A DNA stretch of 63,886 nucleotides, the filler included, from Folioceros fuciformis (lineage: Eukaryota), in the NCBI GenBank assembly GCA_049999805.1. It is 8 parts of 8 records of this genome, joined end to end, with 100 filler letters (N's around TTAATTAATTAA, not from the genome) between each part and the next. Parts side by side here need not be neighbours in the genome. Positions count along the whole stretch, not along the records: positions 1 to 25,469 come from JBNGIO010004527.1; 7 more parts are not named here. One strand, given 5' to 3'. Each line of letters opens with the position of its first letter. Positions within the stretch are counted from its first letter, which is position 1. This document shows, one piece after another, positions 2,548-39,927 of the stretch. The notes under the pieces were generated by a model that was given only the letters and a program-made list of their open reading frames with translations, did not search any database and was not told where the DNA came from. Both the position numbers and the translations under genes were made by a program.

Positions 2548-5279
2548 ATGGAAATGGAGTGTGCGAGTGACCTTATGGTCTTGGGTAACAAGGGGCCACA
2601 GGATGGGAATGAGCTCAATGAGAGTTTGAGGCAAAAATTGGCCAACATTGACTGGGATGGCCCAGGATATAGGGAGAGTATGACAATCTTTCTGGAAGTG
2701 TTGGCACCTGAGCCTGCCGCAGGGACAGCAGCTGAGTTTCCGGGACAAGCTGGCATTCCAATACCGGGCTTTGGCTATGCAGTTTGTCAAGTGTGTCAAG
2801 AGCCAGAGAGTTTGGGGGAAACTTTGCTGTGCGATGGTTGCAGAACTAGCTTCCACATCACATGCTTGAGGCTGCAAGCTGAACACGCTTGTAAGCTTGA
2901 TGAATGGTTTTGCCAATCTTGCTCTGAAAGGGGGTTTAATGAGAGCTGGCCATTGGGGATGGTGGACTTGAATTTCATGCTAAGCAGGTCGTCACTGGAG
3001 GGAGGAAGGAAGGGGTGTAAAAATGTCCAGCAGGGGGGTCCCTCGGAAACTGCTGATTTGAGTAATATCACAGTGGAAGAGGCAACCTTTAAATCAGGGG
3101 ATGCAGGAATTTTGCAAGTAGAAGGAAGGGGACTTAATGGTGGAAGAGGCAGCCAGACTGATAACTTTAACAGCCCAAGGCAAGTACTCACCTGCATCAT
3201 TTCGTGAGGAAGTTTGCATCCGGGCACAGAAAAGCACAGTTTCTCCACTCCTTCTGTGTAGTCATAGCGCAAGGCTGATTTCTGTCAACCGTCTGGTTCC
3301 AGTCATCACTCCCAACTGACATAGTCTTAGCTGCATATAAGCTGTTCAGTATTTTAAAGAATCCCGTTCAAAGGATTAAGTAGATTTGGCATGTGTCTGT
3401 TTCAATTGTGCCTAGGAAATGTTTCATGACTTTGACTTTGACTTGCAGGCCCAGAGCTTCTTCACAGCTGTCGTCTGACGGTTCAGATAACAACAGCTTA
3501 GCAAGTTGTCAGAACAAGAATGAAAGGAAAAGATCAAGACAAGAAACTGAGACTACGTCAAAGTCTTTTTCAGAGCCGGACGTCCCAGTTGTTCATCGGG
3601 ACGTTGAACAAGATGGAACACATGTGGATCAGAGTGTGGACCAACTACAGGATGGGAGCCGTGTTTCCTGCTCACCCGAAAGATTATTGAAATGTGCAGA
3701 TGAAGCCCTGGAGCAGTTGCGGATCTACATAGCTTCAAGGAATGGGACTCTCGATGATGGTTGGACAGCTCACGTCAGGGAGAGAAGGAGGGAGGGTAGG
3801 GCTCCAACCACCCGGACCCACTATTATTCACCTGAGAAAAAACTTTTCTATTCACGCAAGCAGGTCGCACGACACCTGGGTCTTGTCGATAGCGAGGATG
3901 ACGCTGGAAGTGCAAGTGTTTGTGAAGCTGAGACCCAGGTCATGCAAACCAAGTGTGATGGCAGTGCACTTTCAGGTCATGCTGTTGAAAGGCTTGCAAA
4001 CGCTGTAACCGGGTCCGATGACACTGTGCCATGCTGCCAGAGTGCGGCTCCTTTTGGAGCCTTGCAGCCACCAACGGCGATGATGCCATATGATGGTGGC
4101 AAGGCTGATGCCTCGCTGACTACATGTCGCAGGTCTAAGCCAGCTAGGGCTGCCAACACTGGTGTGCCAGGGAAGGCAACAACTGATGCTGCTGAGTTGG
4201 AGCAGCAAGAGAGATTTCGCAGGTTGGAGGTTGCAGCCGTTGAGCAGTTGCGAAGGTATGTAGCTGATAGGAATGGAACTCTCGAAGACGGGTGGGCAGC
4301 AGACGTCACAAAAAGAAAAAAGGGTAAAGGGTCAACTGTAAGGACACATTATGTGTCACCAATGGGCAAAGTATTCAAATCGAGGGTGCAGGTTGTTGAA
4401 TATCTTGGTCTCCCAAAGAATGTTCCAAACAGCCAGGAAATTGTTGCTGCAGGCTACCGGACCACTGTAACAGACGTTGTGAATGCAGCTGCAAATGTGG
4501 GTGAGGTTATTGTACTATCAGGAGTGGTGGACGTGGAGCTACCGGTTCAGGTTCCCAAGGTCCCTGAAGAATCATCTAGAGTGTGGCGGCCAACCAAGTT
4601 GCTCGAGGCAGTGTCTGCTATGGATCCATCCCAACCTCGAGAAGCTGAATCTCTTCCTAGCCAAGTTCAAATACCAATGATGATTGAGCCACTCTCTCAA
4701 CCCGATCTTCTTTTCCAGACACATGCCTCCAGAAGTTCTTCAGGGAAGGGTTACTTGCAGCTTCTCGAGGAGAACATTGTGGGCATGAGAGACCGAAGTG
4801 GTAGACCGGGAGGAGGTTGGAATCAAGATGAATGTGGACTGGTGACAAACTCAGAATATGGGGTAGAGGAAAGCAGGTGTATGTTGTCAAGGATAGATAC
4901 TGCACACAATTCTGTTGTGGTGGAGCCCTTCATGGAACGAGTTCGAGAGGAGCAGTGGAAGGGGATACCTAACTCAAATTGTCATGATTCTGCAGAAGGT
5001 GCACCCAAAGACGAAAGAGAAGAATCTGAATGTTCAAAGTGTCAGGAGGATGCTGGCGATGCTTTGACAGAGGATGATCTACTGCGGAATATCAGGGAGT
5101 TTGTGGCAGAGCAAAACGTGTTGCTTGAGAAAGAGATGGACCTCCAGATGGAGAACACGTCGAACAGCTTCGCACCACGCAAAAGGGCAAGAGTCCGATC
5201 GTGTTTGGACATCGCGAGACAACTAGGTGCTTCTGGGTTGAAGAACCTGGATGTTCAGAGTCCGGACACTGGAGTATGA
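2548..5279 (+). CDS. PHD finger + two MBD-like domain protein (MBD9-like N-terminal architecture); exons 2548-3179 and 3449-5279
   Basis: The PHD reads CQVC..LLCDGC...FHITC...WFCQSC. Two MBD-like motifs read GWTAHV...THYYSPEKKLFYSRKQVARHL and GWAADV...THYVSPMGKVFKSRVQVVEYL. A phase-2 GC-AG intron at 3180-3448 (AG|gcaagt...ttgcag|G) joins the two ORFs in frame. The true 3' end may extend further. Confidence 0.8.
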
Positions 5280-5911
5280 CGCGCTTTGACCTCAAGAATG
5301 TAAGGAATTGTTTCCATCCAGAGGATTCTTTAATCGTTCAATGCTCATGTGTTATGTCTATCAGCTGCCTCCAGTCTCGGTCGATTATTGGAGGTCCAAT
5401 CTATTCACTTGATGGTAGCCCTGCAGGCTTGTATGCAGTGTGTGTACATTGAGAGTAAGGGTTGATGCCGGACGGCCCCTAGGAAGGGGGCCACGCAGCT
5501 ATCATCAGACGTTGACAACGAGTTGGGAGTTCAGTTCTGGCGAGGAGTTCGACATAACCTCCTGATGACCAGACTTGCTTCGCCTAACAGTGATGGAGAA
5601 GCGAACGTGGCGGTTGGTAGACAGGAACAAAGCAGCCCACTTCGAATGAAGACCCATGTGCAGTTGTTCTCTTCCCCCTTGAGCATGAGCAATTCTGGTG
5701 GGAGAGGGAGATGTCATGAACGTTGGGGTCCGGGGGCAGGCAGCGTCATAGCTTTCAGAAAGCGACATGAAGTCCGGTGCTGAGTAAGTTGGAAACTCAT
5801 CCCTCAACCGTTCCAGCATTGTGTAGTCCTCCCTGCAGACTGTACTCTTTCCTGCGCCGTGTCCCTCTGTCGTCCGTGTGAGCAAAATGTAAACTCCGAT
5901 CCTGCACCTTC

Positions 5912-7852
5912 TCACCCCAGCAGGTGCAAAAGAGCCAGCCCTCCCGACGCAAGAAGCAGCGGCACCATGTCTCGAGCATGCTGCTGCGGGTCTAGGGACA
6001 ATCCAGCGTCAAGTACGTTCATCTTGCAAGGCATGTTGAGCGCCTTGTTTACCAAGGATACAGAGAAGTCGGCTATTTGCGGGTTCTCCGCCTTGATAAG
6101 GTTGGGATACACCCGGCACCTGACAGACACAGCTGGGAGCTCCTCATCCTCGACTGGGAAGTAGCCGAGCCCGCAAGGCCCGCACCCAACCGCTGGTTGC
6201 TCACACGGTAGCTGCAATACTGAATTCGCTTCAACAATGGCGGACTTACTCAGATTGTTCCTCGTGTACAATTCCATCTCGTCAACTCCGCATGCCAGAG
6301 CCAACGCCGAAACCTGCAGGGACTGTGTTACCAGGAAGGTCGAGCCACAAGCAGAACAGGCAGAGGATGGGGCGGGCAGCTCGGCACAAGGCACAGATAG
6401 GTTCTGCCCTAACTGCAGTGGGGCCTTTGCCTGGCCGGGTAGGATCCCATTCGCGTACTGTAGAAGCTCGGCGGGGACCTGGCACAGCTGCGCCATGGTA
6501 TCAAGACTGGAGTCATTGACCTTCACCTCGGGGCTGCAGGGGCTGCATCTCGGCGAGAGCGAAGTTCCGCAGGTTACGATGAGTTGGAAATTCGGCGGCA
6601 CCTCGGTGTGCACTTTGGGATTGGCGGCCTCCAGCCCCTTCGTCCTGCATTTGGCCGATACCGCTGCTAAGCTCTCGTAATCCTGCGCTATGTACGAGGC
6701 CCCGCACAGCCCGCATTGCCTCGAGCTCTCCCCGAAGCAGGGCACGCTGATCAGTTGCCCCGGCCGGAGCACGGACGATTCGTTGCGGAGTGCAGGGTTT
6801 GCAGCCAGCAGTCCCTCGTTGCTCACTCGGCAGGTACGCGCGGCTATGTCGACACTTACTGCTTCCTTGGCGCGGTAAAAGATGCCACAGTCGCCGCATC
6901 CACTTGTGGATCTCGCCAGCTGCGGCTGCCCACACGGGACGCTGATGTACTGCCCTGGGTAAAGCTCCGGGTCTCCGGTAGCCGCAACAATGAGGTCCTT
7001 GTTGGCCTGGTGCAGGTCTTGGAGAAGAACACGGCACTTGGCGGCTATGGCTTCCAAGTCATCCCCATACTTGATGAAGTAGAAGGCCCCACAGGGGCCG
7101 CAGTCCGCTGGGTCTGTCCCCGTGCACGGCAAGTTCACCGTCCGTCCCTCGGCATCGTCTACACCCGGGTTAGCTTGCTGCAGCAGGCCGAGGTCGACAT
7201 TGCACGTCTTGGAAAGGGAGGAGAGCGTGTCGCCTACGCCTCCCGCGTACAAGTTGCCGCACACGCCACACCTCGAGGTGTTGAGCGACAGGGCAGGCGG
7301 CGCATCTGACGGGGCAGTGCTCGGGCTCGGATCCGGAGTTGGTTCTGGCCTTAGCAATGGAGAGGGTAGCCTCTGGGGGAGGCTCGTCGGCGCCGCCGGC
7401 GCACGTGTGATCGGAGGTGTCTGTGGAGCTTGCGGCGGAGGTGCTGTGGGAGGGGCTTCTGGAGGAAAGGTAGAAAGCGCCGGAGGTGAAGAAGCCGGTG
7501 ATGCTGGATCCGTCGGGGATGGAGTAGGAGCAAGTTCCACTGGTAGAAAGGGCGAGGGTGACCGGAGTCGCGTTTTCTTCCACTGCCACTTTCCCCTGTG
7601 CTTCCCCCACGTCTTCTTGTTCCTCTTGTTGGTCCTGTCGAAACTCGCGGAGTATTCCTCGAAACTGCTCCACGTGCCTAGCCGCGCGGGGAAGAGGTTG
7701 CTGAGAGGCGAGCTTCGTATGGACATGTGAGGACGACGGTCCTGCTCTAACGCTCTACCGACAGGGAGAGCGTTGAAGCGACCGAATCCCCTTGCGCAGA
7801 GGTGCACTGACCCGATCCACAACAGGAGGAAGAGGTGCCATCTTCTGGCCAT
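5912..7852 (-). CDS. Secreted, probably GPI-anchored Pro-rich protein with seven LysM repeats (intronless)
   Basis: A signal peptide MARRWHLFLLLWIGSVHLCARG starts at ATG 7852, in frame within ORF 5912-8035. A Pro/Ser/Ala stalk follows, then 7 repeats of CxxC..Y...GD.L..I...C......L..AN....L.PGQ.I.VPC. The C-terminal tail MVPLLLASGGLALLHLLG is hydrophobic. Confidence 0.8.
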   Translation of the reverse strand: MARRWHLFLLLWIGSVHLCARGFGRFNALPVGRALEQDRRPHMSIRSSPLSNLFPARLGTWSSFEEYSASFDRTNKRNKKTWGKHRGKWQWKKTRLRSPSPFLPVELAPTPSPTDPASPASSPPALSTFPPEAPPTAPPPQAPQTPPITRAPAAPTSLPQRLPSPLLRPEPTPDPSPSTAPSDAPPALSLNTSRCGVCGNLYAGGVGDTLSSLSKTCNVDLGLLQQANPGVDDAEGRTVNLPCTGTDPADCGPCGAFYFIKYGDDLEAIAAKCRVLLQDLHQANKDLIVAATGDPELYPGQYISVPCGQPQLARSTSGCGDCGIFYRAKEAVSVDIAARTCRVSNEGLLAANPALRNESSVLRPGQLISVPCFGESSRQCGLCGASYIAQDYESLAAVSAKCRTKGLEAANPKVHTEVPPNFQLIVTCGTSLSPRCSPCSPEVKVNDSSLDTMAQLCQVPAELLQYANGILPGQAKAPLQLGQNLSVPCAELPAPSSACSACGSTFLVTQSLQVSALALACGVDEMELYTRNNLSKSAIVEANSVLQLPCEQPAVGCGPCGLGYFPVEDEELPAVSVRCRVYPNLIKAENPQIADFSVSLVNKALNMPCKMNVLDAGLSLDPQQHARDMVPLLLASGGLALLHLLG

Positions 7853-10036
7853 GGCTCCCGCTGTCAAGTCAGTACTCTGGTCGGGGGTAGGATCCCGCCC
7901 CCGCCCGTTCCTAGGAACTCTGCCTGTCGAAGGGCTAGATGGCGCGGGTGTCTGTGCAAGGACCGGGCATTGGGTGGCATCCCGCCTTTCCCCCATGGCT
8001 AGCTGACAGCCTGAACTGCGGGTTACGCAGGACATAGCTCTCCTCTGTCAGTCAGAGAAATCTCTTCATAGGAAACTGGGACCGCTCTGTGAAGTCAAGA
8101 TCAGCGTCGCATCTGTTCAAAGTCCGTCGTACATATTTTATCGCATTCATTGAATTCCCCCATAACTGCGGCGTGCACGTCCGACAAATACGCCTATACG
8201 GAAACTGCAGAGGTCTGTCCAGACGGCTTACTGTATTAGGCCAAATGCACATGCAGTGATAAGAATCCCAGATGGACAGCGGTAGGTCTGGTATGGTAAA
8301 AGTTACCAACTTCCGTCACGGGATTCCGTCCTAATTGGATTCTAATAGGAATAGGATTTGTCTCTTGCATGTGGCCTGTCCTTCAACTATGCAGAAGGCA
8401 CAGGCGCTCGTCCCTCTGGGTTCACACCCAATGCGGATTTGTTTTGAAAACATTTATACGTATTCTTCGACGGCTGCTAGAACTTCCCACATGCATACAA
8501 CTGTCTATGACAGCAAGGGATTTTTTTTGAAGACGAGTGTTCGCTGAAGGAACGAATCAAGGATATCCCAGAGGACTAGGGGACGGCACAAGAATCTCAT
8601 CTCCACGTACGCCGATGTGCCGTGTCTCGGCGTATGTGGAGATGAGATTCACGATGCGCCGAATCTCTCAATTTTCAATTTGGGACGTGGATTTCGGTAC
8701 CACCGTGGCAATCGTTGCATATCCAAACATTCTGTCACTGGCACAGATGCGTCATCCTCTGTGTCCAGCCGACCAACATGAGAACGAAAGGGACTCTGCT
8801 CATCAACCACCTACCTGAACATGATCCGAAAGTTTACGGTGCGCAAGAATGCCCACAATTTCCTAATAGAGGTGAAGGAGTTGTTGGACGTGACCGAGGA
8901 TGGCGAACGCAGACTAAACTAGGGAGCTCCACCATCTCTTGGAAATGGAATACGAATGGGATACCCAACGAACTGTCTGAACAGCGTGACACAGCCCAAA
9001 TTGTTTTCCCTGTACTCTTTCCGTCGGGGCAGCAACCTGAGGGATGCACAAAGTGCTCAGTGTCTACAGAGACATCGTCTTCTCCACTTGAGCGCTGGTG
9101 AGCAGTAACCAGTTCATCCGCTGTGAACCGACATCAGCACCATGACATCCTACCAGTTGGACCCCGAGGAAACAAGCGTGCTCGCCGTGTCAGTATTTAT
9201 TCGGTGCGGACTTGCATCTCCTGAACACTGATGTCGCAATCGGACTACGAGTACTAGGTGACACGCTAAGTCTGCATTGCTCCACTTTCTTCCATTGCGC
9301 ATGTGGCAAGCGTTGTCGTCCCTATGGTAGCAAGTTACTTTTAGCTACGCAGCAAGAAGTAGTCGGATTACTATAGGAATAGGCCTGCCTGCCAAAGTGT
9401 CTCGCTCTGTCGAGTCAGGGGTGAAGGGGGGCTGCAGTCTTGAAGCACGGTAGTAAGGAGTGCTCTCAAAACACAGATTCTTCCTTGCACTGTTGCAAAC
9501 ATGAACTGTGAGGGGCTTTGAGTACAGGCGGATTAGAGACTTTGCAAGCATTGAGCGCAAGTAGAGAGAAGCAGGACGCGACTTACCCAAGGTAGCGTTA
9601 CATAGTCGAGGAGAGAAGGCTGCGCTGGCATGGTTCCACACATGCCGTTGGAGTTCGATCTTCTTAGTTCATAGCTTTGCACAGATCCCACGTTCATGCA
9701 TTCTGCATTCATTCATTCATTCCTGTTCCATGCCCTGCGAGGAATATCCTGCAATCATCGCACGCCACATCCCGATATCTCCTGAGAACCGCCCACGAGA
9801 TGCCTTGGGCTCCATCTCCGCTGCCAGACTTGGCATGTCCACCAAATTGCTTGGTGCAAACTCATGGGCTTCAAGTGCTTGTTCTCTAACTTGTACACCA
9901 AATCATTGTGTGCAGCTATGTCTTTTAGCTTCTTGAGCAGATTCAGAGGTGGACAGCTGTATGCTCCAAAGTTTTTCGTACGCATAGATCGTCTATGTTG
10001 ATAACCGGCTCCCTCTTCCTCTGGAAACGCCTGTTG

Positions 10037-13000
10037 TCAGCAATGCCTCATCTCGCCGACCAAAAAGCTATGAACCAGTCCGTCCATATCCGTCCACCAA
10101 CTCTGACCCGGCTGTTTCCATGCCCTCATGCTTTTCCTCCAGGCCTGCATCTCTATTCTTTGCTCCCACATCTGGACACCGGTGTATATGTTCGACATCA
10201 ACATGTATGCTGAGACATCTTTCTTGTCTAGTTTGACTGCTTCATCAAAGGCATGGCGACCTACGTTCACGTTATTCCACTTCCGACAGGCACCCAATAG
10301 AGTGTGCCAAACTGCAGAGTTAGGGAGTACAGGCATTGTCCTGACTACGGATAGTGCCTCCTCCAGTTGCCCTGCGCGACCCAAGAGATCAACGATGCAT
10401 ACATAGTGGTCTACTGTGGGAGTGACATTGTACTCCCGGCCCATAGCCTTGAAATACTCTTGCCCCTTGTTCACCAGACCCGTATGATTACACACGCTTA
10501 GTAGACACAAGAACGTGATGCCGTCTGGATCGATACCATCCTCGCCCATTCTGGAAACCAAGTCAAAGACTTCTTCACTGTTACCTTGACGGGTGTACCC
10601 TGCAATCAGTGCATTCCAGCTAGAAACGTCTCGTTTGGGCAGCGCCTCAAACACCTCCATTGCATCGGCCATGCTACCACACTTCCCATACATGTCTATC
10701 AAACTGCCTGCTACGAGGACATCAGCTTGGAGCCCTTGTTCTTTGATCTGTGCATGAAGCTGCTTACCAAGATGCAAAGCTGCAACACTTCCGCATGCCT
10801 GAAGGAGGCCCACAAATGTGACGGAGTTGGGTGCGACAAGGCCCTCTGATAGCATCTCCTTGTAAAGACACAGAGAGTCCTGACCCATCCCCTGCTGGGA
10901 ATACCCTGCTATCATAGCACTCCACGTTACAACATTTTTTTGGCCAAGTCCATCAAACAAGATCCGTGCATCCTCGAGACTGCCACACTTGGCATACATG
11001 TTCACCAAACTACTGGCTACGAACACATCGGCTAGCAGGCCTTGTTGTTCTCTGATATGTGCATGGAGCTGTTTTCCCGTCTCATAAGCCGGGGTACCCA
11101 CACTTGCGCATGCCTGTAGGAGGGAAACAAATATCATAGGATCAAGTGCAGCCATGCTCTCTGCTTTCATAGCCCTGTAAAGCTCCAGGGCTTCTTGCCC
11201 CATGCCATGTTGGGAATAACCTGCAATCATAGCACTCCATGTCACCAAAGTCTTTCCACAAATGCTGTCAAACACGACCCGAGCATCTTTTAGGTTCCCA
11301 CACTTTGTGTACATGTTTACCAAGCTGTTGGCAACAAACACATCGGCCTGGAGCTGTAGTTCTCTAATTTGTGCATGAAGCTGCTTTCCCATCTTCAAAG
11401 CTGGGGTGCCCACACTTGCACATGCCTGCAGGAGGCAAACGTATGTCACAGAATTCGGCGCAGCTAAGTCTTCTTCTTGCATAACACTAAAGAGCTCGAG
11501 AGCTTTCTTCCCCAGACCCTGCTTAGAATATCCGGCTATCATGGCACTCCAGGTCACCACATCTTTCTGAGGAAGAGCCTTAAATACAGAGTCAGCATCC
11601 TCTAGGCTCCCGCACTTGGCATACATGTCTACCAAACTGCTAGCTACAAACATATCAGCTTGAAGCCCTCGTTCTCTGATATGTTTATGAAGCAGCTTCC
11701 CTTGCTCCACAGCCGTACTGCCAACACTTGCACATGCCTGCAGGAGTGACACAAATGTCACAGAATCGGCTTCAACCATGCCTTCTTCTTGCATAGCCTT
11801 GTAAAGATTAAGGGCTTCATGCCCTATACCCCGCTGGGAGTACCCCCCTATCATAGCATTCCAGGTCACTACATTCTTTTGACCAAGTTTGGAAAAGACA
11901 CTCCAAGCATCGTCTATGCTCCCGCATTTTGCATACATATTCACTAGGCTCCCACCTACAACCATGTCAGCCTCAAGCCCTTCCTTTCTAATCTGGGCAT
12001 GAAGCTGCTTCCCTTTCTCCAAAGCTGCAGAGCCCACACTTCCACATGCCTGCAAGAGGCACACAAACGTCACAGAATTGGCTGCTGCCGTACCGTCTTC
12101 TAGCATAGCACTATAAAGATGAAGGGCTTTCTCACCCATGCTCTGCTGGGAATATCCTCCTATCATGACATTCCAAGTTACCACATCCTTTCGAAGAAGT
12201 CCGTCAAACACTCTCTGAGCGTCTTCTAAGCTGCCACACTTTGCATACATGTCTACCAAGCAACTACACACAAATAAATCAGGCTCAACGCCACTAGCTA
12301 TCACATCAGCATGCACCTGCTGCCCAGCTTTCAAGTCTGCTTCTCTCGCACAAGCCTGAAGGGCTGCTACAAACACATGGCCATTTGGCTTCACTCTTGA
12401 CCTCCGCATACTATGATACAGCTCTATAGCCTTTCTGTCCTGTTCGTGCTTAGAATGAGCAGAGATTATGGCACACCACGTGAAGACATCTGGGTCGGCA
12501 ACCATAGAGAACACATCCATGGCCTCTTGCAACCTGGCATGAGAAGCATACATTCTCAAGATTTGATTGCACAGGAACGTATCTGAATCATACCCCGTCC
12601 TAACAATGAGAGCATGAATACAGCGACCCAAAGCCAGATCTTTCTTGGCCACACATTCCTTTAGGACCGTATACAAAAGAGATGTGGAGATATAGCACTC
12701 TGTGTGCACCAGAACTCCCATAGCCTCAACAGCCTCTGCCAGCTGCCCCTGCTCACATAGCTTGTGGACCGTTTCCACACTTACCCCTTTCCCGCAACCT
12801 GCGGGCCTTTGAGTGTCAAGAGCAGCCGGCACACTCCAGTTGGATATGGAGGCACGATGACCCATCTCCACATCCATGGCAACCAGCTGGTCATCCCGCC
12901 AAACGTGCCTGCAGAAGTTGTTCAGTCCGACGCCCTCCTGGCACTCCCCATGCTGCCGGTCAGACGAACAAGAACCGATCGAAGACATGCATCTAGCCAA

Positions 13001-13201
13001 ATATCCTCCTTGGTGGAGTGCCTCCCTTACGCACCTCGTGAAAATACATGCTTCACTGTTGCCCGACGGGTGGCTCCTTGATTTCGGCTGAACGAGTGCT
13101 CTTCCTGGCATGTCGGATAACCCTGCACTTCGTTGCGTCCAAAAATACTGGACCCCCATCGACTTTCTGTCCGGTTCGATTCCTACGCTCCAGACAGCCA
13201 T
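10037..13201 (-). CDS. PLS-class PPR protein, E1-E2 plus WW-type PG box, truncated before the deaminase core (E+); start codon uncertain
   Basis: Repeating P-L-S motifs (DVVTWNVMIGGY / NSVTFVCLLQAC / FVASSLVDMYAKCG) are followed by E1 (VWHTLLGAC) and E2 (SAYMLMSNIY). The protein ends KQPGQSWW...HSFLVGE with no HxE/CxxC. Confidence 0.92.
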   Translation of the reverse strand: MAVWSVGIEPDRKSMGVQYFWTQRSAGLSDMPGRALVQPKSRSHPSGNSEACIFTRCVREALHQGGYLARCMSSIGSCSSDRQHGECQEGVGLNNFCRHVWRDDQLVAMDVEMGHRASISNWSVPAALDTQRPAGCGKGVSVETVHKLCEQGQLAEAVEAMGVLVHTECYISTSLLYTVLKECVAKKDLALGRCIHALIVRTGYDSDTFLCNQILRMYASHARLQEAMDVFSMVADPDVFTWCAIISAHSKHEQDRKAIELYHSMRRSRVKPNGHVFVAALQACAREADLKAGQQVHADVIASGVEPDLFVCSCLVDMYAKCGSLEDAQRVFDGLLRKDVVTWNVMIGGYSQQSMGEKALHLYSAMLEDGTAAANSVTFVCLLQACGSVGSAALEKGKQLHAQIRKEGLEADMVVGGSLVNMYAKCGSIDDAWSVFSKLGQKNVVTWNAMIGGYSQRGIGHEALNLYKAMQEEGMVEADSVTFVSLLQACASVGSTAVEQGKLLHKHIRERGLQADMFVASSLVDMYAKCGSLEDADSVFKALPQKDVVTWSAMIAGYSKQGLGKKALELFSVMQEEDLAAPNSVTYVCLLQACASVGTPALKMGKQLHAQIRELQLQADVFVANSLVNMYTKCGNLKDARVVFDSICGKTLVTWSAMIAGYSQHGMGQEALELYRAMKAESMAALDPMIFVSLLQACASVGTPAYETGKQLHAHIREQQGLLADVFVASSLVNMYAKCGSLEDARILFDGLGQKNVVTWSAMIAGYSQQGMGQDSLCLYKEMLSEGLVAPNSVTFVGLLQACGSVAALHLGKQLHAQIKEQGLQADVLVAGSLIDMYGKCGSMADAMEVFEALPKRDVSSWNALIAGYTRQGNSEEVFDLVSRMGEDGIDPDGITFLCLLSVCNHTGLVNKGQEYFKAMGREYNVTPTVDHYVCIVDLLGRAGQLEEALSVVRTMPVLPNSAVWHTLLGACRKWNNVNVGRHAFDEAVKLDKKDVSAYMLMSNIYTGVQMWEQRIEMQAWRKSMRAWKQPGQSWWTDMDGLVHSFLVGEMRHC

Positions 13202-13635: not shown

Positions 13636-16183
13636 TCAGTGCCTGTCTCCACATGAACAGAACCCATTAACGAAGTGGTGAACACGGTGGGCATCTCTAA
13701 CGATTATTTCTCGATTTTCAATCCTGGACATGGCCTTGGTGCCGCTGTGGCAATCATCGCACATCCGGAGATTTTTTGTAACTAGCAAACTTGCACCATG
13801 TGGAGTGTTTAGCAGACCATACGCTAGAGCCAGTTTCTCAGCGTGTCCACACAGCACATCTTCCTTTTGTTCCTGAATAGCTGCATTTGGTGCCACCGCA
13901 ATGTGGGGAAGACTGCCTCGCTGTTCTTCCAAACGGAGGTTTACACTTGTAAGCTTGGAGGCGACGTCGTCCGCTTCTTCCCCTACCAGGAACGTATGGA
14001 CCTTACCTTTCACCTCGATCCAGGCTCTTGCAGGCAGCTTCTGGGCACCTGAAGACTTCCTTAATCTCTCTATCCCCTCAAAATCCCTCCAAACACCAGC
14101 ATTTGCGTAAATTTTCCCCAAGAGCACATACGCAGCTGAGTTTTGAGGTTCCAGTTTTGTAAGTCGTTCAAAACATCGCCTTCCCCTTCCGACGTCACCG
14201 TGGCTCTTGCAGGCATTCAGCAAAGACTTCCATCCGACGATATCTGCATCAGATTGTTGTGACAGGAGCATGTCTTCTGCCTCATCCAGATGGCCTGCTC
14301 GCCCAAGAAGATCAACCATGCAGTTATAGTGGTGGGATGAGGGCCGGATTCCATGCTTCTTCACCATGAGATTGAAATAGTGCTGACCCTCCTGTACCAG
14401 CCCTGCATGACTGCATGCCACTAGAAGACAAATGAAGGTAGCCTGATCGGGCTCGACCCCCTGCTGCTGCATCTCCGTGAAGCACTGCAGGGCTCTTACA
14501 CCATCACTACATTGGCTGTAGCCGTTCAGCAAAGCGGTCCATGTTACAACGTTTCTGGTAGGCAATCTGTCAAACACTCCGAGAGCATCCATCAAGCTGC
14601 CACATTTTGCATACATGTCCACCAGACTGTTGCCAACGGCAGAGTCTGCTTCCAGTCCTCGTTCTTGGATTTGAACATGAAAGTGCTTGCCCTGGTGTAA
14701 AGCTCCCACAGATGCACATGCGTTCAGGAGGCACACATATGTGACATGATCTGGAGCGATCATGCCTTCTTGTTGCATTCTTGCGTAGAAATTAAGAGCT
14801 TCTTGACCCAGCCCATGCTGACAATATCCTGAAAGAATGGCGTTCCAAGTCACAACACTTTTCGTGGGTAAGCTGTCAAAAACTTTGACAGCCTCTTCCA
14901 GCATCCCACATTTTGTATAACCGGCAATCATGGCACTCCCTGACACAGCATCCTTCGTAAGCAGATTGTCAAACGCTACACGAGCATCCTCCAGGCCGTC
15001 ACATTTCACAAACATGTCCACCAGATTCCTGCCAATCTCCTCATCCTTATCCAATCCCCTTTCCTGAATCTGAGCAAACAGCTGCTGCCCATGATCCAAG
15101 GCACCAGAGCTGGCACACGCTTTCAAAAGGGCTACAAATGTGTTGTGATTGGGAGCAGTCGCACATTCCCATTGCATACTTGCATACAGCTTAAGGGCTT
15201 CTCGACCAGACCCACAATGAGCATATCCTGAAAGCATGGCATTCCATGTGACAGTATCTTTCTTCTGCAAATTGTCAAACACTATACGGGCATCCTCCAT
15301 GCTTCCGCACTTAGAGTACATGTCTACCAAACAGGTGCCAACCACTAAATCCCCTCCAAGTCCAGCTTTCTCAATACTCCAATGAAGTTGCTTTCCCTGA
15401 TGTAACGCTTGGATGCTGGCACACGCCTTCAAGAGGGAGATGAATGTTACACGATTTGCTGGAATTAACCCCTCATTTTGCATACTCGCATACAATGCAA
15501 GGGCCTCTCGACCAGCTCCATGGCCAGCGTATGCAGTGAGCATAGCATTCCAAGAGACAACAGTCTTAGTTGGCATCTTATCAAACGCCCCACGAGCATC
15601 CTCTATGCTCCCGCACTTTGAATACATGTCAATCAGCGAGTTCCCGACAAATACATCAGGCTCGAGTTTGCTTCCCAACACATCAGCGTGAACCTCCCTT
15701 CCAGATCCCAAATCCGATGCACTGGCACATGCTTTCAAAACTGCCACAAAAATGTGATTGTTCGGTTGTACTGTTGTTTTCCGCATTTGTCGGTAGAGCT
15801 CCACAGCCTGCATGGGGTGCCCATGATCGGCATGTCCCAAGATAATGAAAAACCAGGAAAACACGTTCGGTGCAGCTAGCGTTGTGAACACATGTGTTGC
15901 ATCCTCCAACTGCCCATGAGAAGCATACATGCGGATGATGTGGCTGGCCAAGAACGTGTTCACCTCATTTCCGCTCCTCTGAGCAATATCATGAACTCGC
16001 CTTCCAAGCACCAAATCTTTTTTTTCAATGCACCCCTTGAGAAGACGGTAGAGAAGAGGCACCCCCACAGGCGATCGATGACCCAGTAAGAGCTCTGAGG
16101 CTTCAACTGCCTCACGAAGATGTCCATCATCACATAGTTTGCTTAAGGCACGAGAGTTCAACAAGCTGTTACTCCTGGATGAC
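13636..16183 (-). CDS. PLS-class PPR protein with complete DYW:KP / DRH-type deaminase-like domain (candidate U-to-C organellar editing factor); 5' exon not resolved
   Basis: A PLS array, E1 and E2 are followed by KLPARAWIEV...HTFLVGE, CGHAEKLA, KNLRMCDDCH and terminal CSCGDRH. A splice acceptor tttgcag|G at 16184 precedes the long ORF, which implies an upstream exon. Confidence 0.93.
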
Positions 16184-20394: not shown

Positions 20395-23300
20395 ATGTCG
20401 AGCACTCGGCCAGCGGCTGAGAACATGTTGCGCGGGGAAGGTCGGCTGCAATCTTGGAGCATTCCACCGCGGCTGAGGCACATGCTGTGGCCGCTCGGGA
20501 GGCCGAAGCACGCGGTTGGGGACCTGGAGCTGGCCCAAGGCGGCACGGGCGTGGAGGCTGCCATGGCGCGGGCCGAGCAGGCTGCCCCGAATTCTCTCCC
20601 TCCTTCCTCACAGGAGGAGAAGAGGGGTGAGGATTGCGGGGGACAGAGGCAGCAGAAATTGGACGCTGCCGAGCTGGGCCGGCCCGAGGTGGCCAAGGGG
20701 CATCAGGATGAGCCTGTTTATCATCTGCGGGTACCGCAAGCTGGGCTTGGGGATGTGGGCTGTTGGGCAGATCCGAAGATTAAGTCACAGGACTCGGAGG
20801 CGGTACCGGTTGTGTCGCTGCTGCCAGATGAGATGGGGAACCTGAGGAAGCGTGTTGTGGAGGCAGACACACAAGAGGAAGACGTGGGCTGTACTGCCAC
20901 CCAGCGGCTGAGGGGATCGCGATTGGCGGTCCGGATGGCGACTCAAAAGGGATCCCAAGTGCACACGTCCCCCTCCCGAAAGCTTGCTGTGGCAAGCATG
21001 GAAGAACGAATTCAAGATTGGCTGGGTCGCTGCAGGCTGTCGCCAGAAGAGAGATCCCGGTTTTCACTCACGGCAATGGATGGAAGGGGTCTCCGTGCTG
21101 GATATGGAGGTCAAGGTGAATTTGAATCGGTGGGCTGCCGGAGGACGGCGGTTGGAGAAAGGAATGATTCGGTGTCTGGATTGAACGGAAATTCTTCTGG
21201 CCCGACTGGAGGCGAGCAGGGACGTGCGTTGAAAGGGAGCAGCCTGACGGTGGGTCCTCCGGAAGGAATATTGAAGGAATGTCACGAAGGTAAGGAGTTG
21301 GAGAGAGAGGAGTGGGCAATGTTTGAAGGAGCTGCAGCGGAGCCAGGGCAAGACGAGGCTGTGCGACAGACGTCCGTGCAGGCTGGTGGTATCGGGCAAG
21401 ACGCGGGGGATGATGTGGCTGCAAGGGATGCCACAAATTCTGGGCAGAAGTGTTGCTCTCCAAGTGCTCATAACGATGTGCCGTGTCGGGTCACCGTGGA
21501 CAGAATTGCGGCAGTCCAAGATGAAGGAGACAACTGGTTTCCGTTGCAAACATTTACACGGGAATATTTGACATCTAGCAACGGAGGCTATCGAGAAGAG
21601 ATGGACAGTGAGAGTATCCTTGGCTATTTCCCGTTGGTCACCAGTGTTCCACTTCAAACACAAGGTCGAGCCTCCCATGTTCCACAAGACAAACAAGGTC
21701 GGGAAAAATTATTTTCAGTTCCTGGACCTATTCTTCCAAGGAAACATGGAGTCCAGAATGTTGGAAGACCTGTGACTACAGCTCAGGTTGCTACACCGAA
21801 ATTTTCTCCTCCTGCACTTCAACTCCTGCTTTGTGCAGCAGCTCCCGCCGATGCACCGGGGGATGCTGCGACTTTTCCTGGCCAAACAGGTGTGCCACCT
21901 TTAGAAGCCCAACAACAGTTTTGCGTCTTGTGTCGCAATCCAGAGACACAAGAGAGCTTGTTGTGCGATAAGTGCCACAAAAGCTTTCACGTGGTTTGTC
22001 TGGGGATAGACCTCAGGACAGATGCCCTTCAGGAGGAATGGTTGTGTCCTTCCTGCAAGATTGATGAAGGTCCTTGGAGTTGGAAACTTAGAAAGGTAGG
22101 TGTAGGTGCACCTGTACGTGAGGCCCAGCGGCAAGGGCTCCGAAGTGCTGCCAGACAGACAGGGCATGCTGGCGCCTCCATTCAGGATGATGACAGATTC
22201 GGCAGGCAAGTTATACAGAGATCTCTCTTCTTCACGCACAAATTGTCGTTTGTGTAACTGATTCTCCTAATTTTTATCTTCTGCTTTGCAGATTTGAGGC
22301 TTCGGAGCTACGGAGCAATGGAACCTATGGCTCCACCATGAATCTCAGACGCAGGAAGGCTACCGACTCAGCCGTTGCGGACCAGCTTCCTTACGACGGT
22401 GGGCAGTCTCCATTCGAAGATTCCTTCATACTAGAAGACCCCTACTACAGAACCAAGTTTGCACCACGATTTTCAGAGGAGATTGTCCGGAAGTACGAAG
22501 CTCAAGCCGTGGAGAAACTGCGGATCTACATTGAAGACAAGGGTGGAGTGTTAGCGGAAGGATGGATCGGCCGATGCATGCTGGTGAAGCACAGGACGGC
22601 ACTGCAAGCGTATTATGTGTCTCCGAGAGGGAAGAGGTTCCAATCGAAAGTGCAGGTGGCAGATTATATGGGACTGATGTCATTAAAACCCAGGCAACCG
22701 CATTATTCCACTCAGCTGATGCAACCAGAGCAGTCGCAAAAGATGAAAATTGAAGCAGAAGCAGTGCAAAACTTGCGAAAGTTCATTGCTTCCATGAACG
22801 GCAATCTTGGACCAGGTTGGACAGCTCAAGTCGTTCCCAAGAAACACATACATGGCAGGATGCACATCTGCTATTGGTCTCCCGCACCGGACAAACTTCA
22901 GTTCAGAACGAAGATGAAGGTGGCACAGCACCTGGGTCTGGTGGATGAAGGACGTAACGATGTACATTTCACAGAACCAGACCAGACAGGACTTGAATCC
23001 GCTCCTCATCAGCAGGTCGCAAGCTCTGACGTCTCAGACCACCAGGAGCACCGGGAACAGTGTGCTTGCAGCGAAGGGATGAGAACCAATGAGCAGGAAC
23101 TAAGAGATCCAGATTTCCCTCGACAACCTTCTGCATATCAAGCTATGAACGAATTACAACCGAATTGGGATTCCTCGGTGGGAGGTGAAATGGCTGGGAG
23201 TAGTGCCGATTATTCAAGTGCTCGACATGTTCGAACCTTCGGACCAAACCAGTGGTTCAACATTGTTCCTTCCGTTGACATTACCGGTGGGCGAGAATTG

Positions 23301-25469
23301 CAATCAGCAGTGACAGTGAGTGTGCGACCTGAGGGCCGCCATCAGCATGCGTCCTTGAAGGACAAGGACGGCAGGCAGGAGGCTTTCATACTCGGGTCTA
23401 ATTTGGGCTTGAAGGGTTTGCCCACAGGCACTGGTGTCCCATCCACACCGCAGATTTCGAGCATCTCATGGGCCCCAAAACGCTCTGATGCAGCAGAGAT
23501 CCGCAGGAGCGTGGATGTAAGCTTACAGAGGTGGGTATATCATCTTGCATGCATCTGAATTCGCATGCTGCCTCAATTGACAGCAACTTGAAGTGGCTCG
23601 TTGGCAGGTGCATCAATGACTACCATGCTGTTGAAGACAACGGTGGCCATACAAGCCAGGATGCAACACTGTCGTCCGGACACAAATCACACAGGACTAC
23701 CGCCGCAGCTGGGCCCAACATTTCGAACAACGTGACTGACAACAAACTCACCTGTAACGGGTACCCTCTCTTCGTCCCTTTTGAAGATGCCATACCCAGC
23801 CGACCTATTTGGTGTCCTGCTCGTATGGATTTCTGTTAAATAAAATCTCCGACTGATCTACGGGACTGTGACTGGCTGGCAGTTGTAGATCGGACGAAGA
23901 TGCACTTGTCGACGATAATGCTGTCCCAAGAGGCAACACACGTGTGCCACCAGAAGCAGCAGATGACAACTCCAAGCGCAGCAAAGTGGTGGCATCAACG
24001 AGGGTGATGTGAGTGAAAAGCACACTCCTACGCCTAGACATACTCCTAGACCGCGCCGTACTTTGTTCTGAACACCCGGCTGTTTTGCAGGAATCTGGCA
24101 CGAATTGCTGCACCTGCAGAATGCAAAGATGTAAAAGGCGAAAAAACTATCCGACAGAGAGTTGAAGCAGCCACGAGGCAGGTTCTGTTGACGGAGATGT
24201 TCAGGCCACTGAAGAGATCCAAAATGAATGCTCCCCGGCCAGTGGAGCCGTGCGATGCTATGGCAGAAAGCAACTCAGGCACCGGTATCGGAGGTGCGAC
24301 AACGGGGGAGGTGGGTTCGACGAGCCATGGGCGTGCTTGCTCCACAACGGTTTATCAGGTGGACCCTCAGGCAGCTGGTAGATGGGATATGGAGGATACC
24401 CACATTAAAGCCTGCTTCTGCACACCGCGCGAACCCTTCCTGGACCAGCCAACGGAGCCACTGCACGACAAGACAGCCAACCCAGACGAAGTAGTTCCAG
24501 TAGCGGAGTCTGAGAAGCGCAAGGGGAGGAGAAAGACGGCCCAGGCCCAGCCCCAGGCCCAGGAATTAGAAAAACCTGATGACAATGGCAAGGAGGCGAG
24601 GACGAAAATGCCGAGAACACGAAGCAGAGATCAAGCACCTGTCGCAAGCGCGCAGGATGACGACACGCTCGGGCGGAGAAAGAGGATGAAAACTGTCACC
24701 AGAGAACCCCAACAGATGGGCAGGAACAGCAAAGACTCCACACATGCGGACCCAGAGCAGGAGAAAGAGGCACAGGCGGTCCCGCAACCAGGCAGACGGA
24801 GGGGACGGCCTCGCAAGGTGCTACTCCCCCCTCCAGAAATGGTGCCCGCTCAGAAACCAAAGCAGCAGCGGCCCACACCGGCGGCTGGAAAGCAATCAGC
24901 CCTTCCACAGCCTTTAGAGACACGCAGGGGTCGCCCCAGAGGAGCCCATGCAGTCGAAAACGTCCGCAGCATCCCCAAGCCCAAGAAGGCCGCCCGGGGG
25001 CCGCTCCAAGACTCTCCCCGAGACAGCTGCGAGTACGTGGAGGTGGACGCGCCATCCATCTTCAGCTTCCCTGCCGCAGTCGTGAAGGAGGAGCCCATCA
25101 GCGACGCTGAAACTGCGAACGTAGCGAGAAGTAGGAGACGGCGCGCTGAAGCCGTGCATGCATATGGGAGAAGTGCAAGGAGGGCTCGCATACAATCCGA
25201 GGACGAAGCCTGGGCGGAGGCCAAGGCCGACGCGGACGGGCCATGGATCCGGAACATCGTGGCTGTGCATGACGGCAACTACAGGGTGTGGGATGACCGG
25301 GGCTTCGCGGTGCCCGAGGACGAGCTCGGAATGGCAAGGACCGTGTACGGGGCTCGGCACAACCGCGTTGGCCGCGAGGTGTTCAGAGGCGACTACCGCG
25401 GCGTAATCGGGAACAGGAACGATGTGGCTGCGACTGGGCCAGGTCACAGGACCACGATTCGCAAGGACT
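20395..25469 (+). CDS. PHD + two MBD-like + AT-hook protein; exons about 20395-22205, 22292-23530, 23608-23760, 23889-24008, 24091->25469 (runs into gap)
   Basis: The PHD reads CVLC...LLCDKCHKSFHVVC...WLCPSC. MBD-like motifs read GW...YYVSPRGKRFQSKVQVADYM and GW...YWSPAPDKLQFRTKMKVAQHL, and AT-hooks are RRRGRPRK and RRGRPRG. All four proposed introns are phase 2 and keep the frame; the first is GC-AG (22206-22291). The start codon is uncertain. Confidence 0.8.
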
Positions 25470-32917: not shown

Positions 32918-35900
32918 ACTCAAGGTTGACACTCAATCCTTTCTTGAGTACTCACACCTGATAAATGTCTGAAAGAACCAGACTGCTTCTGACTGGAGTT
33001 TTACTCACAAGACCTTAAGTCTCTTCTTCCTAAGAGCAATCTGGTGCGGAATCACGCTGCCTTGCGTGAACCAGATTGTCTCATGCTCCGTGTCCTTACA
33101 GACTCTTGACTGTCTGCCCACAAAGCTCCCGTGTGAAACTTGGGATTCGCAACAAGGGCCAGTGCCGACATATTGTCACACACAATTGGGGTAGGTGCCT
33201 GCTAGGTCTGATCCAGATCATGTAAGAAGCTTCCCTCCCATTCTGCCTCCTTTGAAGCATCTGTGAGTGACCTGTACTCTGCTTCTGTGGATGACAGGGC
33301 TATGGAAGTCTGTTTTTTACATGACCAGTTCACAGTGTCAGAGGCAAGCAAGAAACAATATGTAGATAAACTTCTTCTGGAATCACTGTCCGAAGCCCAG
33401 TCGGCATCGGTGTACCCAGCAAGTGTAAGTTTCTCTTGCCCACTCCTCTTGTAAAATAGACCATATGTGTGGGTACCCTTAAGGTACCTAAAGATGCGTT
33501 TAACAGCTACCCAGTGGGCCCTGCCAAGTTTCTCCAGGAATTGAGAGACAGTGCTCACTGAATACTGTACATTAGGCCTGGTCCAGTTTGCCACGAAAAT
33601 CAGGCTGCCTACAGCATGCCTGTAGGGCACATCCTTCATGTCCTTGATCTCAACATCAGACTGAGGGCATTGCAAACTGGTGAGTTTTGCTCTCGTAGCA
33701 TACGGGGTTATAGTAGGCCTAGCCTCATCCAACTTAAATTTTCACAGGATATCATTGATGTATTTGTGTTGATGCACAATGATTAGTCCTTCATCTCGTA
33801 CCCTTAGGATTTGAACCCCAAGGCAGGATTTGAGCTCACCGATGTCCTTCATCTCGAATTTTGTGCGTAGCATAAGCTTGACTTCCGCTAACAAGAGCTG
33901 GCTATTTGTGGCGAGGATTACGTCGTCCACATGTAAGGCCAATACAACAAAGTCATTGCCTTTGTTTAGTCTATACACATTCGAGTCTACAGTGCTCCTG
34001 ATGAAAGAGATGCTCAGAAGGTAAACATGCATGGTAATATACCNNNNNNNNNNNNNNNNNNNNNNNNNNNNNNNNNNNNNNNNNNNNNNNNNNNNNNNNN
34101 NNNNNNNNNNNNNNNNNNNNNNNNNNNNNNNNNNNNNNNNNNNATACCATACCCTACCACTCTGCTTCAATCCATATATACATTTGAGCAACTTTAGAAC
34201 TTGGGTGGGGTTCTATGGGTCTTCATAACCCTCTGGCTGCATCATGTACAGGTCCTCATCTAGGTCACCATACAAGAAGGCGGTACATACATCCATCTGT
34301 TGTAAGTACAGATATAACTCTGCTGCAAGAGCAAGTAGGATTCGAATGGACTGGGCTCGAACAACTGGGGAGAAAGTCTCCTGGTAGTCCAGCCCCTCTA
34401 CTTGAGTAAATCCTCTAGCTACGAGACTGGCTTTATATCTTGCAATGTCTCTGTGTGCATTTAGTTTTAATTTAAAAACCCATTTGCAGGAGATGGCCTT
34501 GCGGCCAGGAGGCAAATCGACAAGTTTCCAGGTCTTGTTTTTGAGCAAAGACTGGTACTCGTCCTCCACTATGAGTTGCCACTTAGAAGCATCAGGGCCA
34601 GCCAGAGCTTGTTTGTAGGAGATAGGTTCTTTAGCAGGAAGGATGTCAACAGTGGCACCAAAAACAGTGGAGGATGTCCTGAAATCAACAGACTGGTAGC
34701 GTGGCTCACTCCATTGTGCTGGAACAGGCCTGTGCCGTATAGAACGTCTAAGGACAGGTGCGCAATCAGGATCATCGTCCACATATATAGGTGCAAAACC
34801 CTGAGCAGATACCTGCTGGTCATGGTCAAAATCTGCCAACTCATCAAGGTGTACTGCATTACTAGCATCAGATAAATTCAGGGCCATGTCCTCCACTGAA
34901 ACTGTATCGTCCATGTTGTTAGCATGATCAGGAACTGGTGGGTCCTGGGCTAATGCGTATGCTGGCTGTTGTGCAGGGACAGTGGGAGGATTGGGGTCCT
35001 CCGGATCAAGGCGAGCATCATCTGCTGGTTGATCAGTGTCATCCAAAGGGAAGGTAACTGTGTCTGATTCCTCGTCCAGGGTGTCTCCCTCTGAGTTCTT
35101 AAACAAGATAGGAGCATGTGTACAAGCAGTGTATGATTCAACAAAGGTGACACTTCGTGCTAAGGTCACTGTCTGTGATACAGGATCATACAACTTATAA
35201 GCTTTGACATGCTCACTGTAACCAACAAATAGGAGACTACGGGCACGGTTGTCTAACTTTTTTCTCTTCTCCGCAGGGATATAGGCAAAGGCCTTAGAAC
35301 CGAACGCACGCAGATGAAGTAGGCTGGGCTTACGATGCCAGAATACTTCAAAGGGAGTCCACCCCTTCACAAAGCTAGTCAGAACCCTATTCAATATGTA
35401 TGTGGCGGTGACCACAGCCTCTGACCAATATTCTTGAGGTAGGCCTGCTCAAAGCATACTCCTCGTCATACCCAGCAAAGTTTGGTTTTTGCGTTCAGCT
35501 ACGCCATTTTGCTGCTGAGTATGCGGCATAATCAGCTGTCTCTGAATGCCCTTCTCAAATAAGTACTCATCAAATGCATGATTAACAAACTCCGTCCCAT
35601 TATCACTGTGCAAGGTTTTGAGCAGGCTACCAGACTGACGTTGAACTGTTGGCAGCCAGTCCCTGAAGCAGCCAAAGGTATCGCTCTTCAGGTGCATGGG
35701 GATGGTCCATGAGTACCGGCTGTAATCGTCTGTCAGAGTCAGGTAATACAAAGCCCCTCCAAGTGAAGGTGTTTGTATTTTTCCTGACATGTCATCATGG
35801 AAAAGCTCTAACACAGAGGTTGCTCTATGTGCAATCTTAGGGAAAGGGAGTTCCTTTTGCTTAGCAAGGATACATGAATCACAAACAGGTAAATCCTTAA

Positions 35901-38888: not shown

Positions 38889-38959
38889 ATATCTGACACA
38901 AGTTTTCAGCGCCAAAACCTTGTGAAGCCTGAAATGACAGAATACGCCCGTCTGGGTTA

Positions 38960-39655: not shown

Positions 39656-39669
39656 TTGGAAATAATAGG

Positions 39670-39927
39670 TTTTTTTTTTTTTTTTGATCTGGGAGTGAGT
39701 GCTGTAGAGGAAAGGTTGGGAGATTAGGTTAGAATAGTAGTTAGATTTATGGTGAGTCGATAGGGTAGGTAGGTTGTGTGGTAGATAGGTGTGGAGGCAA
39801 AACCCCGGGCACTGATTGCCGACGGGTTCCACCTTTAGTGGCCACACTTATCCCACTGTCGTTGAGACATTGGGTTTCGTTCCCACGAAGGAGCGATGGG
39901 GTTCCTTGCTGCTGTGGATGGAGGGTC
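39670..39927. repeat. Unclassified interspersed repeat with a T16 tract; 39789-39927 recurs inverted at 45707-45845
   Basis: A 139-bp reverse-complement match with 3 transitions. The poly-T at 39670-39685 abuts the copia fragment. Confidence 0.85.

Follow-up and report, generated by a model that had tools for sequence, protein, structure and literature searches.

The LysM gene and its product

The window analysed here, a stretch of 63,886 nucleotides from Folioceros fuciformis (GCA_049999805.1) joined from eight parts of eight records, carries on its minus strand at 5915-7852 an uninterrupted gene for a protein of 646 residues (P0001). In this protein seven LysM units, each holding four cysteines, follow a putative signal peptide, a basic segment and a Pro-rich region, and precede a hydrophobic C-terminal tail. 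A sequence-only reading of the stretch had described an unusual cell-surface protein with CxxC-bracketed LysM repeats, and its coordinates, continuous frame and seven four-cysteine units were borne out. The protein belongs to a small family of non-flowering land plants and, as argued below, may act as a multivalent lectin at the cell surface. On the minus strand, 707 codons are open in the frame 5912-8035, of which the start at 7852 uses 646. The features of the locus are as follows.

5912..5914, minus strand: stop codon (open reading frame, ORF, listing)
5915..7852, minus strand: coding sequence of P0001 from the start at 7852, 646 codons, uninterrupted frame
7787..7852, minus strand: putative signal peptide, residues 1-22 (MARRW, hydrophobic core, ARG; hydropathy peak at 5-22, model helix at 4-18)
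7562..7642, minus strand: basic segment, residues 71-97 (12 K/R and 1 D/E in 27 residues)
7277..7561, minus strand: Pro/Ala/Ser/Thr-rich region resembling arabinogalactan proteins (AGPs), residues 98-192 (composition; predicted local distance difference test, pLDDT, mostly <50)
7124..7270, minus strand: LysM unit 1, residues 195-243, from its first to its fourth Cys (strand 201-203, helices 210-216 and 221-227, strand 238-240 in the model)
6932..7102, minus strand: LysM unit 2, residues 251-307 (best Pfam stretch 260-306; matches the Volvox chitinase LysM 5k2l)
6737..6898, minus strand: LysM unit 3, residues 319-372 (Cys pattern, model)
6569..6715, minus strand: LysM unit 4, residues 380-428 (Cys pattern, model)
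6386..6547, minus strand: LysM unit 5, residues 436-489, with the variant CSPCSP (Cys pattern, model)
6203..6358, minus strand: LysM unit 6, residues 499-550 (Cys pattern, model)
6026..6184, minus strand: LysM unit 7, residues 557-609 (Cys pattern, model)
5915..6025, minus strand: C-terminal tail, residues 610-646, with small residues (DAG), a polar spacer and a hydrophobic end; candidate glycosylphosphatidylinositol (GPI) attachment signal (hydropathy)
5915-5971, minus strand: terminal hydrophobic stretch of 18-19 residues, residues 628-646 (hydropathy)
8033..8035, minus strand: upstream in-frame ATG, an alternative start that would add 61 non-hydrophobic residues (ORF listing, hydropathy)
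5427..8183, no strand assigned: single collinear contig of sequencing run X1, which behaves as RNA, without an internal joint (read-contig alignment)

The protein contains 29 cysteines, one in the N-terminal hydrophobic segment and 28 in the repeat region, the latter arranged as 7 x (CxxC-x18-C-x25-33-C) with the CxxC motifs starting at residues 195, 251, 319, 380, 436, 499 and 557. Successive units are separated by linkers of 7, 11, 7, 7, 9 and 6 residues, and neither P0001 nor its relatives P0002 and P0003 contain a CxC motif. The Pfam LysM profile PF01476 recognised the protein with an E-value of 1.6e-16 (60.4 bits against a cut-off of 20.9), four stretches passing alone, and all 10 of the other family members scanned also passed this cut-off. 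Receptor-type LysM models remained below theirs, with 19 bits against 27 for LysM_RLK (PF23577) and 20 against 29.3 for LysM3_LYK4_5 (PF23473). The conserved LysM Asn is present in 7/7 units.

Two AlphaFold2 models were built on the family alignment, one of the whole protein and one of the LysM region alone. Both show strand-helix-helix-strand in each of the seven units, with the strands of unit 7 only two residues long and hence under the three-residue listing threshold. Mean pLDDT reached 59.6 in the whole-protein model and 68.1 in that of the LysM region; the corresponding predicted template modelling scores (pTM) were 0.33 and 0.44, and the models therefore support the individual folds, not the arrangement of the domains. 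A Foldseek search of the PDB returned as top matches Ecp6 (1.9e-6), OsCEBiP (1.7e-5), SleL, MltD, a Thermus NlpC/P60 LysM pair and AtCERK1. An aligner independent of Foldseek matched units 6-7 to the SleL LysM pair (Z 8.4) and also matched OsCEBiP (Z 7.0); with it, unit 2 superposed on the Volvox chitinase LysM 5k2l over 49/49 residues (Z 6.5, rmsd 2.1, 33% identity). When the family profile was run against PDB sequences, Ecp6 (2.2e-11), LytE (2e-9) and SafA (7.7e-6) were found, together with the Volvox chitinase LysM, legume LysM receptor kinases, CEBiP and fern chitinase LysMs. The ESM Atlas, where the best score was 0.88 (under 0.9), pointed to Basidiomycota and Bacillota LysM clusters and is taken as a lead only. 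In the predicted models, then, the units of P0001 are LysM modules of the beta-alpha-alpha-beta type, and two checks proposed in the sequence-only reading, a LysM profile and structure prediction, came out in favour of its assignment.

Signal peptide and GPI signal were judged by hydropathy and residue rules alone, the -3/-1 rule being used to place the cleavage site of the former. The two most hydrophobic 15-residue windows of the protein lie at its N-terminus (from residue 6) and its extreme C-terminus (from residue 632). A terminal hydrophobic stretch shortly after the last unit is found in 12 of the 16 family sequences examined, and the four without it come from a shorter gene model or from alternative or older ones. 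The tail is thus a candidate GPI-attachment signal, with which its hydrophobic end is compatible.

The basic segment and the Pro-rich region seen in the earlier reading are both present. A K/R-rich stretch comparable to the former occurs, among the relatives, in P0002 only. Residues 98-192 contain 34% Pro and 73% Pro, Ala, Ser and Thr together (PAST), with SP 7, AP 8, TP 3, PPP 1 and SPPP 0. A region is generally counted as AGP-like when PAST reaches at least 50% and AP, SP and TP dipeptides accompany a secretion signal, and residues 98-192 have the composition of a chimeric AGP by this rule. Of the description 'extensin/AGP-like', the AGP half therefore stands but the extensin half does not; an extensin was considered and rejected, as the region contains no SPPP and no Ser-Pro(3-5) repeats. 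Nor can the region be the membrane stalk that had been proposed: because it is N-terminal of the LysM array, whereas the candidate anchor signal follows directly after LysM7, it is a distal tail. In the family alignment the region is short or absent in P0003, P0007 and P0008, in which the LysM array is kept.

Run X1 was taken as RNA from its spliced joints. These, 5299>5427 and 9489>9587, have canonical GT..AG intron ends and lie one in each of the neighbouring transcripts; since they are missing from the DNA runs X2 and X3, X1 contains spliced RNA of the locus. The X1 contig of 2757 nt is collinear with 5427-8183 and covers the LysM gene with no joint inside, and because the run is collinear here and spliced in the neighbours, the LysM gene is probably transcribed and unspliced, in agreement with the absence of introns noted earlier. 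The contig starts exactly at the acceptor site of the adjacent plus-strand gene for a methyl-CpG-binding domain (MBD) protein; it merges two convergent transcripts and therefore does not define the 3' end of the LysM gene.

A translation start at 7852 is provisionally favoured over the upstream ATG at 8035. The ATG at 7852 is flanked by a purine (-3) and a G (+4), and it makes the hydrophobic core N-terminal, as in the homologues. The interval 8035-8183 on the minus strand, which lies inside the X1 contig, contains the in-frame ATG at 8035 plus several out-of-frame ATGs, the first of them near 8163 and opening a short ORF; these may represent upstream ORFs or an alternative N-terminus. Two other interpretations of the locus were rejected. 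One, a LysM receptor kinase whose kinase would lie in a downstream exon, is at odds with the stop of the frame, the collinear RNA contig and the MBD gene on the opposite strand; the other, a pseudogene, with the intact frame, the conserved cysteines and the presence of RNA. A tblastn search within the window did not find a second copy of the LysM gene.

The neighbourhood includes two intronless PPR genes of the E and DYW types, MBD and PHD proteins, and pieces of a copia-type retroelement. The convergent MBD gene (ORF 3393-5279, plus strand; Pfam MBD 2.4e-13, with a second similar stretch upstream) is followed just downstream by a GT..AG intron of 127 nt at 5300-5426 seen in X1, and one RNA contig spans the 3' ends of this gene and of the LysM gene. 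The tandem PPR genes occupy 10037-13201 and 13636-16164 on the minus strand, one ending in an E motif and the other in a DYW deaminase domain whose C-terminus reads ...CSCGDRH in place of DYW. At the 3' side of the PPR gene stop, the X1 contig 8747-10000 contains the joint 9489>9587, which leaves out 97 nt whose ends read CT..AC, or GT..AG on the minus strand, and may be an intron in the 3' untranslated region of the PPR gene or part of a separate small transcript. Further along, a PHD-finger ORF (20395-22257, plus strand) is directly followed by a second MBD-domain ORF (22338-23558, plus strand), the second MBD copy in the window, and the two may be one gene. Pieces of a copia-type long terminal repeat retrotransposon (RVT_2, integrase core, SH3-like, gag) extend over several ORFs at 34213-44584 on the minus strand and are probably degenerate.

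Distribution and age of the seven-LysM family

In an exhaustive HMMER search, 213 of 1.84 billion cluster representatives matched at E<=1e-3, eight of them at E<=1e-30. The family members named among these matches, all annotated as hypothetical or uncharacterised, are the following.

Marchantia polymorpha (Mp7g16540 / MARPO_0123s0036): full length
Selaginella moellendorffii: full-length form, two loci
Diphasiastrum complanatum: full-length form, two loci
Cryptomeria japonica: full-length form, two models (P0007/P0160)
Psilotum nudum: a partial long form plus a four-unit short form (P0013)
Ginkgo biloba (P0023): EGF domain plus three units
Two further clusters: long forms

Seven units are present in 7/7 full-length proteins from distinct lineages, whereas the Cryptomeria models have eight, the additional one being N-terminal. 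The units of the short forms (EGF-like plus three in Ginkgo, four in Psilotum) cannot be assigned to positions 1-7 in any simple way, and this hints at a separate subfamily. The special link to hornworts that had been considered is not sustained by this distribution, which takes in a liverwort, two lycophytes, a fern and a conifer, with the short forms in Psilotum and Ginkgo. On the present evidence this is a small family kept in non-flowering land plants and, among the named matches, not seen in angiosperms.

The cysteine frame is a property of this family. Among the 175 proteins compared, the four-Cys unit was found in 22 sequences, all of them family members, and in none of the 153 others, which are mostly bacterial-looking. 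Within the family, 68/69 repeats contain exactly four Cys, the gap between the first and second Cys is two residues in 66/68 and that between the second and third is 18 in 54/68, and the cysteines are invariant in the alignment wherever all rows are present. The bacterial search matches (P0010-P0021) carry up to about 16 tandem LysMs with one Cys before strand 1 and one in the ...ICIP of strand 2; this apparently regular two-Cys clasp occurs in at least two units in 38 of the 175 proteins.

Individual repeats also retain their positions. In 239 of 294 comparisons the best cross-species match of a repeat was at the same position, against a chance expectation of about 1/7. In a repeat tree that also included 306 other LysM domains, all 69 family units grouped in a single clade of their own (support 0.76); the units at positions 1 and 5 formed clades of their own (support 0.97 and 0.99), those at positions 2 and 3 did not. 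The 306 non-family domains all came from other search matches rather than from reference plant, fungal or algal LysMs, and it is from those domains that the tree, which partly answers the repeat phylogeny envisaged in the sequence-only reading, separates the family. Positional matching and position-specific clades together imply that the seven-fold array predates the split of these lineages: to judge from the repeats, it is ancient, older than the divergence of the land-plant lineages that carry it. In the full-length tree P0001 pairs with P0002 (support 0.998), and the deeper branches are unresolved (0.007-0.67).

Proposed function and competing explanations

We consider, with moderate confidence, that P0001 is a secreted, GPI-type anchored, AGP-like chimeric and multivalent lectin for polymers of N-acetylglucosamine (GlcNAc), related to LYP/CEBiP in function though not a member of that family. 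The N-terminal signal peptide would direct the protein into the secretory pathway, where the C-terminal hydrophobic tail would be exchanged for a GPI anchor directly after LysM7. The seven LysMs would then project from the membrane, with the AGP-like region and the basic patch forming the distal end in the wall. Each LysM would be braced by its four Cys at the pole where its termini meet, most likely through two intradomain disulfides, one Cys of the CxxC pairing with the Cys after strand 2 and the other with the Cys that ends helix 1. Because the linkers are short (6-11 residues), the modules are strung closely together, and the array would bind long GlcNAc-containing polymers (chitin, peptidoglycan and related glycans) by avidity, in the manner of bacterial multi-LysM autolysins. 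As the protein has no kinase, it would pass a signal to a LysM receptor kinase, like LYP/CEBiP, or hold or sequester the polymer at the surface. The idea of the sequence-only reading that a receptor or decoy binds GlcNAc polymers multivalently is plausible.

Several observations weigh against this proposal. A GD(T/S)L-type sugar loop is present in just 2/7 units, and only four stretches are recognised individually by the Pfam LysM profile; for these reasons several units may not be sugar-binding. Model confidence is moderate, and the inter-domain geometry is not confident. The four Cys of a unit might instead hold a Zn(Cys)4 site, or the CxxC might close a disulfide within itself. The ATG at 8035 sits within the RNA contig, and a start there would make the hydrophobic segment internal. 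Angiosperm, moss and algal members are not among the named matches, which represent part of the results of one cluster-representative search.

The degenerate sugar loop in most units can also be read as a sign that the protein is a wall-integrated chimeric AGP with a developmental or structural role, whose LysMs bind the plant's own glycans (GlcNAc-bearing N-glycans, AGP-derived signals) or serve as a rigid spacer rather than as a microbe sensor. The PAST-rich region with its AP, SP and TP dipeptides adjoining the basic patch, and the retention of the family across lineages of differing symbiotic habit, agree with such a role. It is nevertheless the LysM array and not the Pro-rich region that the family conserves, and LysMs with known ligands bind microbial GlcNAc polymers, so we think this explanation unlikely. 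Slightly less probable in our estimation is that the protein, which might be released when its anchor is cut, serves as a decoy or buffer that would sequester chitin or peptidoglycan fragments and dampen immune signalling, thereby favouring fungal or cyanobacterial partners much as fungal LysM effectors do. The lack of a signalling domain, the position of Ecp6 as top structural and profile match, and a Cys-braced multi-LysM architecture that recalls fungal effectors such as the seven-LysM Tal6 are what suggest it; the argument is, however, one of pure analogy, and the published fungal Cys pattern is absent from the family proteins in which it was sought.

An origin of the array outside plant LysM genes, by horizontal acquisition from bacteria or fungi or from an algal-type LysM, had been raised in the sequence-only reading and strikes us as very doubtful. 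The best non-family matches are indeed bacterial multi-LysM arrays with the two-Cys clasp (E 2.4e-26 and weaker), one of them from a Bacillota species, and likeness to canonical plant receptor LysMs is weak (for K1B, E 0.1 by sequence and 1.4e-4 by profile), as the sub-threshold receptor-specific Pfam models also indicate. Against this stands the positional orthology over liverwort, lycophyte and conifer, which places any transfer before their split; together with the single clade of the 69 family repeats, the four-Cys unit confined to the family in the set compared, where no algal or fungal protein has it, and the absence of an algal member among the named matches, it tells against a recent transfer in particular. 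The remaining alternative concerns the cysteines themselves, which could form a zinc site or a redox-active CxxC in place of two structural disulfides, making array function metal- or redox-dependent. The motif CGxCG (with CGPC in units 2 and 7) looks like those of redox or zinc-knuckle sites, and LysM topology should bring the four Cys together at one pole of the domain. The proposed secretory route and the even number of cysteines (28) favour disulfides instead, and in the related single LysMs of algal and of fern chitinases the aligned C-terminal Cys takes part in a disulfide; we give a zinc or redox function hardly any weight.

A wider and more tentative possibility is that, in addition to LYKa, LYKb, LYR and LYP, the family constitutes an overlooked fifth class of LysM surface proteins in land plants: an ancestral seven-module sensor of intact polymeric chitin or peptidoglycan rather than of short oligomers. 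Already possessed by the first land plants, it would have persisted in bryophytes, lycophytes, ferns and gymnosperms and disappeared from flowering plants. Such a class may help non-flowering plants to distinguish fungal or cyanobacterial partners from pathogens. Research into plant LysM perception rests on three-LysM receptors, mostly of angiosperms, and surveys of Marchantia, and of land plants in general, have not counted a conserved seven-LysM, anchor-type protein with its own Cys frame. This suggests an early land-plant glycan-sensing toolkit wider than assumed, which would have been pruned in flowering plants. The question is directly testable, as the genetically tractable Marchantia polymorpha carries a member (Mp7g16540), and the Cys-braced tandem array might in itself serve as a scaffold that binds chitin or peptidoglycan with high avidity.

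Comparison with known LysM and arabinogalactan proteins

The sequence-only reading had asked whether this architecture might already be a described, widespread family. Widespread it is, within non-flowering plants, but it was not described in the searches made, and we regard the family as undescribed in the literature searched, supplementary tables lying outside that search. No paper was retrieved with the Marchantia and Selaginella gene identifiers. For proteins with five to eight LysMs, the multi-LysM papers among the matches listed were fungal or bacterial and the plant papers dealt with numbers of angiosperm genes, none describing a plant seven-LysM protein. A search on LysM in hornwort-cyanobacterial symbiosis found mention of a LysM receptor kinase only, one joining chimeric AGPs, LysM and arabinogalactan found no paper, and one on the Volvox LysM disulfide nothing relevant. 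Zhang et al. (2009) state that plant LysM proteins have at most three motifs, with the exception of Selaginella Selmo1 416289, which has four. This exception is the family member P0006, and that sentence is the sole mention of the family found in print. A study of Marchantia LysM proteins (bioRxiv 2022.12.28.521631) reports four receptor homologues in four clades (two of them LYKs, one a LYR and one a LYP), among which Mp7g16540 is not included.

Fungal four-Cys LysM proteins such as the seven-LysM Tal6 of Trichoderma share with P0001 a large number of tandem LysMs and four conserved Cys per unit of about 53 residues. For the fungal-specific LysM, Akcapinar et al. (2015) place the cysteines at positions 5, 17, 42 and 52 of 53 residues and propose two intradomain disulfides; they also mention that a fern chitinase LysM has an intradomain disulfide. 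In each of the 11 family proteins searched (11/11), the published fungal pattern gave 0 matches. The Cys positions of the Tal6 type thus differ from CxxC-x18-C-x25-33-C, and those proteins are soluble effectors without an anchor signal.

Closer in the placement of cysteines are the LysMs of algal, fern and horsetail chitinases (Volvox 5k2l, Pteris PrChi-A 4pxv/5ylg, 5bum), which have a Cys just before strand 1 and another in the ...VPC after strand 2. In the PDB profile search the fourth Cys of the family lines up with the Volvox chitinase LysM at its C-terminal Cys, and 5k2l is the best single-domain structural match of P0001. The chitinases, whose catalytic domain is GH18, nonetheless carry one or two LysMs attached to the enzyme, with two Cys rather than four, without CxxC and without an anchor. 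Among bacterial proteins, AtlA (six LysMs), LytE, SleL and SafA have tandem LysMs that jointly bind a long glycan, and such binding is what is predicted for P0001. They differ in having hydrolase domains or a place in the spore coat, and zero or two Cys per unit. Linkers in bacterial multi-LysM proteins are, moreover, long and rich in Ser and Thr.

Chimeric AGPs, which comprise fasciclin-like, plastocyanin-like and xylogen-like classes, offer the same overall layout as that predicted for P0001: a signal peptide, a PAST-rich region with AP, SP and TP, a folded domain and a GPI-type tail. The partner domain in P0001 is LysM, and its PAST region is not conserved in the family.

The most instructive comparison is with LYP/LYM/CEBiP. 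Like P0001 as predicted, these proteins have a secreted LysM ectodomain without a kinase and end in a hydrophobic GPI-type tail; the likely ligand class, GlcNAc polymers, would be shared, and OsCEBiP is among the best structural matches. A CXC motif between LysMs is described for NFP and AtCERK1. P0001, by contrast, has not three but seven LysMs (eight in Cryptomeria), holds four Cys within each unit with no CxC between units, and carries an N-terminal AGP-like region; it falls short of the receptor-type Pfam cut-offs, and its family has no angiosperm member among the named matches. The unusual architecture recognised in the sequence-only reading, distinct from that of three-LysM/CxC receptors, is accordingly upheld, as is the placement in a distinct family: because three LysMs, CxC motifs and a match to receptor-type profiles are all lacking, P0001 is not a member of LYP/CEBiP.

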